Source: Alphaproteobacteria bacterium
Lineage (GTDB): Bacteria > Pseudomonadota > Alphaproteobacteria > Rhodobacterales > Rhodobacteraceae
NCBI GenBank assembly: GCA_016869875.1
Contig: VGDE01000001.1
Coordinates: 7,088-71,087, forward strand
Length of the DNA: 64,000 bases
Direction of reading: 5' to 3'
Shown here one piece after another: positions 56,915 to 59,578 of the stretch. Within the stretch, counting starts at the first letter, position 1. Every line of letters begins with the position of its first letter. The position numbers and the translations under genes were made by a program. Below the pieces are notes generated by a model. That model was not told where the DNA came from. It ran no database searches and saw only the letters and a program-made list of their open reading frames with translations.

Positions 56915-58669
56915 GTGTCACAGGGAGTTCTGTTCATTGCGGCCGCGTTGCCGGTTGCGGTGGTCTTTATTTTGCTGGTGGTGATGCGCCGGTCGGCCAA
57001 GCTGTCGATGCTGACCGCTTATCTGGTGACGGTGGCGCTGGCGCTGGTGCTGTGGGGGGCACCGGCCGCGCGGGTGGCGGGGGCAACCGTCAATGGTCTG
57101 GTGACGGCGGTCACGCTGCTCTACATCGTCTTCGGGGCGATCCTTTTGTTGTACACCGTCCAGGAGTCGGGCGCGATCCGGACGATCCGGCGCGGGTTCA
57201 CGGACATCTCGCCTGACCGGCGCATCCAGGCGATCATCATTGCCTGGATGTTCGGGTCGCTGATCGAAGGAGCCTCGGGCTTTGGCACGCCTGCTGCCGT
57301 CGCCGCGCCGCTGCTGCTGGCCATCGGATTTCCGGCCATGGCGGCTGTTATGGTCACACTGATCATCCAGTCCACGCCGGTGTCCTTTGGCGCGGTCGGG
57401 ACGCCGATGCTGGTCGGCATCACCAACGGGCTGTCCAACAGCGCCGAGGTCGATGCGGCCATCGGGCCCATGGCGGTCGCGGATTATGTCCCCGTCGTCG
57501 CCGCGCAGGTGGCGCTGGTCCATGCGCTGGTCGGCATCCTGATCCCGCTGTTCATGGTGGGGATGCTGACGCGGTTCTTTGGCACCAGCCGCAGCTTTGC
57601 CGAAGGTTTCCGCGCCTGGAAGTTCGCAGTCTTTGCCGGTCTGGCCTTCACGCTTCCCTACCTGCTGGTGGCGCGGGTGCTGGGGCCCGAATTCCCGTCG
57701 CTTCTGGGAGGGCTGATCGGTCTGATGATCGTCGTGCCGGCGGCACGGGCCGGCCTGTTCCTGCCGCGCGACCGGTTCGAGTTCCCGTCCCGCGACCGGT
57801 GGCAGGCTGGCTGGCAGGGCAGCGTCCAGCCAGCCGAGGCTGACGCCGAACTGGGTCCGCAAGGGCGGAGCATCTCGTTGCTGACGGCCTGGATGCCCTA
57901 CGTGATCGTGGCGATCCTTCTGGTGCTGACGCGGACCATCGCGCCGCTGAAGGCATGGCTGACCGGGCCTGACACGACGATCGCGCTGACGAACCTGTTC
58001 GGGTCCGGCATCAACGCATCGGCGCAGTTCCTGTATTCGCCGGGAACGGTGATGATCATCGCCTCGCTGATCTCGGTCGCGCTGTTCCGCATGCGCGGGC
58101 GCGACTATGGCCGGGCTTGGGCTATCTCGGGGCGGACGATGCTGGCGGCGGCGCCCGCGCTGCTTCTGGCGGTGCCGATGGTGCAGGTCTTCATCAATTC
58201 CGGCTCTGACGGGATGCCGTCCATGCCGATCACGCTGGCCCAGGGCATGGCATCGGCGACGGGCGCGTCCTGGCCGCTGTTTGCCCCGGTGGTCGGCGCA
58301 CTTGGCGCCTTTATCGCGGGATCGAACACGGTGTCGAACATGATGTTCGCGCTGTTCCAGTTCTCGACCGCGCAGGGCATCGGGCTGGACCTGGCGGGAA
58401 TCACCACCGTGGTCGTGCTGCAGGCGGTCGGCGGGGCGGCGGGCAACATGATCTGCGTGCACAACGTCGTTGCGGCCTCCGCCACCGTCGGGCTGGTCGA
58501 CCGCGAAGGGGACCTGATTCGCAAGACGCTGATCCCGATGGTCTATTATGTCGTGCAGGCGGGGCTGATCGGCATGGCGCTGATCACCGGCGGCCTGTGG
58601 TGGGCGGCGGCGCTGGTCTGGGCCATGATCGTTGTGCTGGCCATGCGTACGAATCGGGCGCGCGGCTGA
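56915..58669 (+). CDS. L-lactate permease
   Basis: [39 protein letters not shown]. Confidence 0.93.
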
Positions 58670-58671
58670 GG

Positions 58672-58702
58672 CAAAGGAAAAGGGCGGCCTTTGGCCGCCC
58701 TT
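58672..58702. terminator. Probably bidirectional intrinsic terminator
   Basis: AAGGGCGGCC-TTT-GGCCGCCCTT; minus-strand tail UUUUCCUUU. Confidence 0.75.
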
Positions 58703-58945
58703 GTCTGTCAGAAGCTCCTGGTCGCTGCCGGAGGCTTCGAACTGGGAACGGGCCGCCCAGATGAGGCGACCCGCGAGATCCACGGAGATGGTCCGGTTAG
58801 GGATGGGTAAGCATCCGGTCCCAATCAGGGGTTACGACCCTCGGGGCTGCCCTCAGGCCACGGCCCCCCTGACTGTTCCGACACCTCTCTCCAATATCAC
58901 TCTCGACACTGGACCACCTCCTTTCAAAAGATTGCCGTTATAAGC
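58675..58945 (-). ncRNA. Candidate structured sORF-bearing RNA with extended Shine-Dalgarno
   Basis: Own promoter-like elements, 17-nt SD, 18-codon ORF, several hairpins, terminator. Confidence 0.6.
58853..58909 (-). CDS. Small ORF MSRVILERGVGTVRGAVA (18 aa)
   Basis: GTG start 7 nt after GGAGG within GAAAGGAGGTGGTCCAG; TGA stop at 58855-58853. Confidence 0.55.
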   Translation of the reverse strand: MSRVILERGVGTVRGAVA

Positions 58946-58975
58946 AGAGGGTGCCACAGATCGAAATTCTGTCAA
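58937..58975 (-). promoter_or_regulatory. Candidate sigma70 promoter(s) for the sORF RNA
   Basis: TTGACA (58975-58970) with CACCCT at a 16-nt spacer; alternatively TTCGAT-N17-TATAAC. Confidence 0.5.
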
Positions 58976-59578
58976 TCAGCTTTCGTGCCGTTGCCGCAAC
59001 AAATTGCGCACGATCAGCCGGAACGGCACAAGGGCAAGTAGTGCCAGACAAAGTTTGACCAGCCAGTCAGCAACTGCCAACGAAACCCACAGGCGGGTGA
59101 CCGGTCCCTGCCCAAGCAGCGGAACGGCCTCGTTCGCCCAGCCCGTGTTGATGTCGGCGGGCAATGCCGCCGAAAAGGCGATGCCGAAGAACAAGGCCGT
59201 GTCGAGCGCCGAGCCGATCAGCGTCGAGGCCAGCGGCGCCCGCCACCAGCGCCCGTCGCGCAGCCTGTCGAACACCGCGATGTCCACAAGCTGGGCCACC
59301 AGAAAGGCCGTTCCCGAGGCCAGGGCGATTCGCAGGGTCGTTGCCTGAAGACCGGCGGCGACCAGCGAGCAGGCCACCCCGACGACAAAGCCCGCCAGAA
59401 CGACCCGGCGCGCGGCCGCAGGGCCATAGACGCGGTTCATCACATCCGTCACCAGAAAGGCCAGCGGATAGGTAAAGGCGCCCCAGGTCAGCCAGTCGCC
59501 GATCACGAATTGCACAAGGACGTTGGAGGCCACGACAATGGCGGCCATGGCAAGGATGCCGGGCAGAAAGCGGGTCAT
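58976..59578 (-). CDS. Queuosine precursor transporter (YhhQ/VUT family)
   Basis: ASNVLVQ, TWGAFTYP..FLVTD, RIALASGTAFL.AQLVD, DT..FF. Confidence 0.92.
   Translation of the reverse strand: MTRFLPGILAMAAIVVASNVLVQFVIGDWLTWGAFTYPLAFLVTDVMNRVYGPAAARRVVLAGFVVGVACSLVAAGLQATTLRIALASGTAFLVAQLVDIAVFDRLRDGRWWRAPLASTLIGSALDTALFFGIAFSAALPADINTGWANEAVPLLGQGPVTRLWVSLAVADWLVKLCLALLALVPFRLIVRNLLRQRHES

Follow-up and report, generated by a model that had tools for sequence, protein, structure and literature searches.

What kind of gene occupies the 306-bp gap between a lactate permease ORF (56915-58669, plus strand) and a yhhQ-like ORF (58976-59578, minus strand) in a Rhodobacteraceae genome, is it new, and what might it do? 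The gap lies in the window, i.e., the whole analyzed stretch of 64,000 nucleotides (GenBank assembly GCA_016869875.1, contig VGDE01000001.1, positions 7,088 to 71,087), whose numbering is used throughout. The original prediction had read a complete minus-strand unit into this gap, with promoter, an exceptionally long Shine-Dalgarno (SD) sequence, a short ORF, hairpins and a terminator, and had put it forward as the best candidate for an undescribed system. The ORF list gives the same gap length, and a sequence check found every one of the listed features on the minus strand.

A complement of the 16S rRNA 3′ end upstream of a short ORF

The minus strand of the gap carries an extended SD sequence, GAAAGGAGGUGGUCCAG (58909-58925), that complements the whole free 16S rRNA 3′ tail. 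Read as GAAAGGAGGTGGTCCAG from 58925 to 58909, it pairs with CUGGAUCACCUCCUUUC over 17 positions, 16 of them Watson-Crick pairs and one a G-U pair, and the predicted energy of the duplex with the 16S tail is -31.0 kcal/mol. The window's own assembly ends short of the 16S 3′ end; the tail ...GCGGCUGGAUCACCUCCUUUCU was verified in a genome of the same genus. In complete genomes of this genus, the SSU rRNA gene terminates in GGATCACCTCCTTTC, and the 16S rRNA reads ...GCGGCTGGATCACCTCCTTTCT. Against this same-genus tail, the 17-nt pairing with a single G-U that had been proposed was confirmed.

The last base of the complement is at the same time the first base of a GTG codon (...CCAG-TG at 58909-58907). 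This GTG opens an ORF of 18 codons, MSRVILERGVGTVRGAVA (58853-58909, minus strand), closed by TGA at 58855-58853, so that start codon and ORF follow the anti-16S leader as originally read. The complement ends in the G of GTG in 48 of 50 unique family sequences, while the other two start with ATG. Across the class Alphaproteobacteria, the first 15 nt of the SD are near-invariant, most of these loci having been retrieved with a pattern that fixes this very stretch.

The window's own genome has a single match to a 19-nt form of the motif, and 24 of 24 genomes of the same genus carry one copy. Within the family, an 18-nt form was found exactly once in 138 of 194 genomes and in none of six genomes of a sister family; the reversed control pattern had no occurrence in the same-family genome scan. 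Loss of the SD or of the ORF in most close relatives, one of the outcomes that would have spoken against the original prediction, is excluded. An extended SD followed by a short ORF of 17-26 codons also appears in records labelled as Gemmatimonadetes/Gemmatimonadota, Terriglobales and Gammaproteobacteria (loci L103, L171, L104 and L187). RNAs of this kind may hence reach beyond the Alphaproteobacteria, unless these metagenome-assembled genome (MAG) contigs were mis-binned.

Boundaries and expression of the unit

The conserved element corresponds to a stand-alone structured RNA of about 200 nt on the minus strand, from about 58941 to 58742. Its candidate promoter (58948-58975, minus strand) consists of TTGACA at 58975-58970 and a weak -10 element, CACCCT, at 58953-58948, separated by a spacer of 16 nt with TGTGG at its end; the predicted transcription start is near 58941. 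Because the promoter scan returned no canonical sigma-70 site, we infer from these elements a weak promoter of the extended -10 type. TTGAC and CTGTGGCA(S)(S)CT are kept in the genus and family alignments; within the -10 element CA(S)(S)CT, conservation is confined to A at position 2 and T at position 6. The promoter originally proposed holds for its conserved TTGACA half, but not for TATAAC (58942-58937), which lies 27 nt from TTGACA and is variable in the genus, and which we rejected as the -10 element. A sigma-54 reading of TGGCAC was also discarded upon sequence inspection, because GC lies at an unsuitable distance and is variable. An RpoH-type promoter looked plausible in other orders but was discarded, being indistinguishable from the alphaproteobacterial sigma-70 consensus and absent in Rhodobacteraceae. 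Many Rhodobacteraceae genera share TTGCGTAA...TTTGACA-ACACAAAATCTGTGGCA upstream of the RNA (window 58948-59000; loci L055-L084). Within this shared sequence, CACA-N5-TGTG in the promoter spacer resembles a small inverted repeat that could be an operator.

At the other end, an intrinsic terminator (58740-58775, minus strand) is formed by CGCGGGUCGCC/GGGCGGCCCG followed by the U-rich tail UUCCCAGUU, with the hairpin CGGGTCGCC/GGCGGCCCG located inside 58775-58749. In BLAST comparisons of 24 same-genus loci, conservation spans window positions 58980 to about 58745. Since it stops there, the CGGGUCGCC/GGCGGCCCG hairpin marks the end of the conserved unit. Compensatory changes in 10 of 10 pairs were found in this terminator stem (helix 12 of the consensus fold). 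All hairpins and the terminator that had been listed are present; however, the two elements further downstream do not belong to the unit, as neither the GAAGC hairpin GAAGCCTCC/GGAGCTTC (58738-58730 and 58718-58711, i.e., 58738-58711) nor the GC-rich terminator returned by the terminator scan (58702-58680) is conserved in the 24 same-genus loci. The hairpin and terminator in 58670-58738 probably belong to the convergent permease gene, or else provide a back-up. Located 11 nt past the permease stop codon, the stem of the 58702-58680 terminator is a good one when read from either strand.

Public sequencing runs give a hint of transcription. Among them we found none with the window locus itself, and no run contained more than a fraction of 0.29 of the words sampled. 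Of the runs that contain the conserved core, one of uncertain type yielded a 182-nt contig identical to window positions 58748-58929, and for relatives the same span is covered by contigs of two RNA-seq runs and a metatranscriptome; such contigs inform neither about transcript ends nor about strand or level. Contigs in RNA libraries that cover the conserved unit thus lend weak support to a transcript.

Assignment to the rre small mRNAs

Hahn et al. (RNA Biol 2016;14:1353, PMC5711450) described alphaproteobacterial small mRNAs in which at least 16 nt of complementarity to the 16S 3′ end precede a small ORF and end in the first base of its GTG. In their work, rreR of the Rhodobacter/Roseobacter branch has 18 codons and a GTG start, and rreB is the counterpart in Bradyrhizobiaceae. 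Because every sequence-level feature that these authors use is found in the window, the element is very probably rreR, i.e., the representative of the 'rre' (ribosome-regulated expression) small mRNAs in the Rhodobacter/Roseobacter lineage. This assignment is based on the sequence features described in the text of PMC5711450. The notion of an undescribed system hence had to be given up: the family was published in 2016, with rreR described for exactly this lineage. The window adds another rreR from a lineage where the gene had already been reported, and the finding itself is not new.

The taxa agree with this picture. Paracoccus, Rhodobacter and Dinoroseobacter are among the genera in Figure 8 of PMC5711450, and our pattern scan of public genomes yielded two MAGs from these genera: that of Dinoroseobacter carries an ORF of 18 codons, and that of Paracoccus encodes the same peptide as the window. 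The same scan found Afipia broomeae ATCC 49717, one of the rreB species of PMC5711450, with a 14-codon ORF, as well as a Bradyrhizobium MAG; other named relatives are Roseovarius, Alloyangia and Donghicola. With published rreR and rreB the window shares a complement of 16-17 nt and a putative free-standing small transcript with a terminator, in which only a few complement bases at the 5′ side are predicted to be single-stranded. No family-defining difference from rreR was seen; in the genus of the window, G replaces A in GGUG(G)UCC, which gives rise to the G-U pair with the 16S tail. Distal masking of the SD by an internal mimic, linkage to yhhQ and missing codon periodicity, all addressed below, are absent from the available portions of PMC5711450. 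The peptide of rreB is unrelated to RreR, and the rreB SD is masked by a local hairpin and not by a distal mimic.

Genomic context

The yhhQ-like gene is located directly upstream of the RNA on the same strand, with the stop codon TGA (58978-58976) immediately next to the -35 box. It belongs to the queuosine-precursor transporter family, and rreR is found directly behind it throughout Rhodobacteraceae. Transcription probably starts at the RNA's own promoter, which overlaps the end of yhhQ, and read-through from yhhQ into the RNA is likely. As sequence inspection and the terminator scan found no terminator between yhhQ and rreR in the window, the rreR terminator may also end yhhQ transcripts.

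This arrangement raises the possibility that the element is a cis-acting part of yhhQ, namely a structured 3′ UTR with terminator that controls stability or expression of the transporter mRNA. In 63 Rhodobacteraceae-type loci, identified by tblastn with the window protein, a co-oriented yhhQ lies 51-189 nt upstream of the RNA, which together with the missing intervening terminator in the window would suit such a role, as would one RNA-library contig that spans both yhhQ and the RNA. However, a conserved TTGACA box separates the two, rreB was reported to have its own mapped transcription start (PMC5711450), and outside Rhodobacteraceae the same RNA has unrelated neighbors. No neighbors are shared across the class, and differing neighbors of rre genes were likewise stated by Hahn et al. 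(PMC5711450). A cis element of yhhQ thus appears quite improbable, and we continue to regard rreR as a free-standing gene.

On the 3′ side, the next gene is co-directional in only about half of the loci, from which it follows that the RNA is not a leader. A leader-peptide transcription attenuator was rejected accordingly, as the permease gene that follows is convergent in the window and, across clades, only about every second locus has a co-directional gene at this place. In a Bradyrhizobium MAG (L198, 6333-6683), an rreB-type RNA adjoins a tRNA gene, as reported for the B. japonicum rreB (tRNA-Gly).

Fold of the RNA and masking of the Shine-Dalgarno sequence

The stretch outfolds 200 of 200 shuffled sequences (z = -3.7). 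Both minimum free energy and consensus folds contain a long internal hairpin, AGUCAGGGG...CCCCUGAUU (58823-58874, minus strand), with an apical hairpin, GGGCAGCCC (58852-58844), that has the ORF stop codon at its 5′ base. A small variable hairpin, GGAUG/CAUCC (58816-58812 and 58805-58801), follows. Many compensatory changes fall into helices 4-7, which build the long internal hairpin, and helices 8-9 of the small hairpin covary. For the covariation analysis we used a model-guided alignment of 59 matches, i.e., 55 plus-strand family copies and four weak matches, in which 92.5% of the cells are paired, compared with 80.9% in shuffles and 45-57% in slid controls. Both-side changes occur in 37 of 54 pairs. 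The observed values were reached by none of 500 shuffles; these counts come from related sequences in an alignment fitted to the model's structure. With this proviso, the covariation across Rhodobacteraceae that had been suggested as a check exceeds 500 of 500 shuffles in the structure-fitted alignment. Near the ORF end (window 58844-58855) lies a hairpin motif, G(R)GCAGCC(Y)C, that recurs in distant clades (L033, L035, L041 and L044). In a clade with 'MSS...' peptides this motif is in frame as E-Q-P in most loci and out of frame in L037 and L040.

The closing helix of the RNA involves the SD itself. According to the folds, an internal mimic of the 16S tail, GGACCAUCUCC (58784-58794, minus strand), pairs with the SD core GGAGGUGGUCC over 11 bp, a duplex with a predicted energy of -23.6 kcal/mol. 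A partner of the C(A/G)(C/U)CUCC type is present in 62 of 62 family sequences, and the variants of this partner keep the pairing by wobble. Pair 25:263, which contains the sole variable SD position, is G-C in 23, A-U in nine, G-U in three and unpaired in 21 of 56 sequences. At the 5′ side of the complement, GAAA is predicted to be single-stranded, with an unpaired probability of 0.73-0.90. In Rhodobacteraceae, a conserved mimic of the 16S tail on the 3′ side is hence predicted to lock the SD and to leave only GAAA free, and opening the SD region would cost about 14 kcal/mol. As pairing of the SD core is predicted to persist over the whole range of 20 to 50 °C, with an unpaired probability of GGAGG of at most 0.004, an RNA thermometer was dismissed.

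Other orders appear to be organized differently. Their SD is less masked, and the CCUCC arm is mostly missing outside Rhodobacteraceae. There, codons 2-5 pair with a stretch that precedes the terminator. This helix covaries between orders, with -9.5 kcal/mol for own versus -6.1 kcal/mol for swapped partners. In Rhodobacteraceae it is weak (-7.65 versus -6.82 kcal/mol for swapped partners) and would cross the helix between SD and mimic.

The open frame and its peptide

In the family, the frame is open in all 50 unique sequences, whereas the two other frames contain internal stops in 29 and 28 of the 50. It comprises 18 codons with the stop at codon 19 in 49 of 50 sequences, and TGA, TAG and TAA are all used. 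Across the class, a frame of 14-59 codons is kept in 190 of 192 loci, 186 of these having 14-32 codons, and it starts with ATG, GTG or TTG only, always at fixed spacing. At the same time, the coding sequence lacks three-base periodicity, with entropies of 0.816, 0.812 and 0.812 bits at the three codon positions, and synonymous changes are not enriched (fraction of 0.23 observed versus 0.29 expected at random).

One reading of the constant frame is an ordinary small-protein gene, in which RreR, a peptide of 18 residues, carries the function and the RNA features tune its expression. The permanently open frame with one stop position but three different stop codons points in this direction. So does the use of synonymous codons at some conserved residues, i.e., TCT/TCG/TCA/TCC for Ser2, GGG/GGA for Gly11, and AGA/CGA and AGG/CGG for Arg. 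BLOSUM loss per changed codon gives frame 0 a slight edge (-3.95 versus -5.2 in the other frames), and the related SEP1 protein was detected in Sinorhizobium meliloti (PMC10117765). However, neither the absent periodicity nor the synonymous fraction indicates coding constraint, peptides of different orders share Met-Ser alone, and Pfam and NCBIfam searches with ten relatives of 22-26 aa gave no real matches. Moreover, synthetic RreB and RreR peptides were unstructured, and rreB overproduction had no phenotype (PMC5711450). A gene whose point is its peptide is therefore possible, if rather doubtful. A tmRNA-like tag, suggested by the ...GAVA ending, was rejected, as the window has no Rfam gathering match to tmRNA and ARAGORN found no tmRNA; likewise, a Trp-leader was dropped for a peptide that contains no Trp.

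Conversely, the ORF might be incidental to a non-coding regulatory RNA that acts by base pairing, for instance through the freed CCUCC mimic arm or as a decoy for anti-SD sRNAs. Equal nucleotide conservation at all codon positions and the strong covariation of the fold would be expected from such an RNA, and the mimic arm seems to resemble the seed of an anti-SD sRNA. Yet starts are restricted to ATG/GTG/TTG at fixed spacing, the frame is kept in nearly all loci as detailed above, and translation has been shown for rreB (PMC5711450) and SEP1 (PMC10117765). The complement furthermore extends into GAAA and UGAUCC, which match only the 16S tail, and the putative pairing arm is mostly missing in clades outside Rhodobacteraceae. 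We hence consider a purely non-coding function unlikely. The decoy function in the original prediction is not supported either, since the conserved complement follows the 16S tail beyond the CCUCC core and not an sRNA loop.

Start signals, open frame and RNA fold are conserved, and the peptide is weakly constrained. Selection that keeps the frame open and hardly constrains its product suggests that the act of ribosome loading itself is the conserved property of rreR, but the peptide may have a function as well.

Possible mode of action

The rre small mRNAs have the longest natural SD pairing described and are kept in many Alphaproteobacteria. For the 165-nt rreB, with its 14-codon ORF and 17-nt complement of the 16S end, Hahn et al. 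reported co-sedimentation with 30S subunits, which bound it strongly, and weak translation (PMC5711450). Its half-life rose from 10 to 37 min once GUG was changed to UAG, i.e., decay depended on the start codon, and the authors proposed a seed-and-melt idea for the pairing between rreB and 16S rRNA (PMC5711450).

By analogy with rreB and from the predicted energies, which agree with this seed-and-melt idea, the 16S tail could nucleate on the free GAAA of rreR and then displace the internal mimic, as a pairing of -31 kcal/mol would outweigh the opening cost of about 14 kcal/mol. The RNA, whose transcription would end at its own terminator, might thereby become docked very firmly on the 30S subunit. 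The mini-ORF would then be translated inefficiently, and initiation, or a trapped 70S ribosome, may trigger turnover of the RNA. In Rhodobacteraceae, a covarying internal 16S-tail mimic masks the SD, and a toehold of only 4 nt is predicted to stay free.

The original prediction of a dual-function RNA survives in part. Docking on 30S subunits matches the co-sedimentation, weak translation and start-dependent decay of rreB; the sponge and decoy functions are not supported. A 30S sponge would lower global translation by sequestering subunits, and the predicted 17-bp pairing of -31 kcal/mol is as compatible with it as the co-sedimentation of rreB with 30S subunits (PMC5711450). Nevertheless, rreB overproduction left growth unchanged, the authors state that ribosomes are in large excess over the RNA (PMC5711450), and the gene is single-copy. 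Sequestration of 30S subunits is therefore very unlikely, and docking of the individual RNA remains our preferred reading.

We may further speculate that rreR of Rhodobacteraceae is a ribosome-gated switch. Entry of the 30S subunit via the GAAA toehold would free the CCUCC arm, transit through the 18 codons would unzip the RNA body, and the freed arm or a ribosome-dependent decay product could act in trans on ribosome-binding sites of other mRNAs. Such an RNA would report the supply of free ribosomes, and its position behind yhhQ could tie it to tRNA modification. As a whole, this extension of the docking model seems rather unlikely to us.

Comparison with known systems

A gathering-mode Rfam scan of the whole window gave no matches, and ARAGORN reported neither tRNA nor tmRNA in 58500-59100, in agreement with the original view that the element is not tmRNA, 6S, SRP or RNase P RNA. 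A permissive scan returned a single meaningful match, RF01867 (Caulobacter sRNA CC2171), over the full model length with 27.6 bits and an E value of 5.6e-4. CC2171 reportedly goes back to Landt et al. 2008. With 27.6 bits against a gathering score of 75 bits, the window is not a formal member of RF01867. The caveat of the original prediction that the element might match a characterized Rfam family thus came true only in part, through this one sub-threshold match. RF01867 was also the only Rfam match for the copies in Methylobacterium (99.1 bits), Brevundimonas (91.1), Afipia, where it is rreB (54.6), Dinoroseobacter (40.0) and Paracoccus (32.1). Among 151 alphaproteobacterial genomes, 26 have matches, with scores that run continuously from 90 to 22 bits. 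A model built from the genus alone scored the Dinoroseobacter copy at 77.5 bits and found true CC2171 members weakly.

The clear RF01867 matches all have the motif, followed at fixed spacing by an ATG, GTG or TTG that opens a short frame, as well as a terminator. The RF01867 consensus opens with the same GAAAGGAGGUGAUCCAGUGUC and is alike in length and terminator, whereas the Rfam structure lacks the pairing between SD and distal arm and the family is filed as a non-coding sRNA. From these sequence comparisons we conclude that rre genes and CC2171 form one family that is covered in part by the Rfam model. CC2171 was validated by Northern blotting in Caulobacter and Methylorubrum extorquens (bioRxiv 10.1101/2022.01.24.477521).

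SEP1 of S. meliloti is a 23-aa protein encoded 'on sRNA' (Hadjeras et al., microLife 2023, PMC10117765). It ranks first in translation efficiency among 54 novel sORFs, and a Western blot confirmed the protein; rreB is unmentioned in the main text of that paper (PMC10117765). Judged by the published ORF and primer sequences, SEP1 appears to be the S. meliloti counterpart of rreR. It has the same GGTGATCCA-ATG-TCT start (continuing AAT-GAG), the hairpin motif GAGGCAGCCCUC near the stop and a short frame on a small RNA, but differs in its 23 codons, ATG start and acidic peptide. The SEP1 cloning primer AGGAAGGTGATCCAATG (PMC10117765 supplement; chromosome 1048694-1048780) equals the 16S complement with an extra A in the SD core, which suggests a 1-nt insertion in the SEP1 SD. 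High translation efficiency together with an interrupted SD would fit the published finding that a full complement hampers translation. Published rre genes, Rfam CC2171 and the translated SEP1 hence appear to be one family.

Masking of a ribosome-binding site by 5′-3′ fold-back is also known from Staphylococcus aureus RNAIII/hld and from hok-type mRNAs. The rreR RNA resembles these in that a distant part of the molecule, on its 3′ side, covers the SD of a short ORF. In contrast, it has no sequence relation to them and its peptide is not hydrophobic; rreR is single-copy and vertically inherited, with no antisense partner known.
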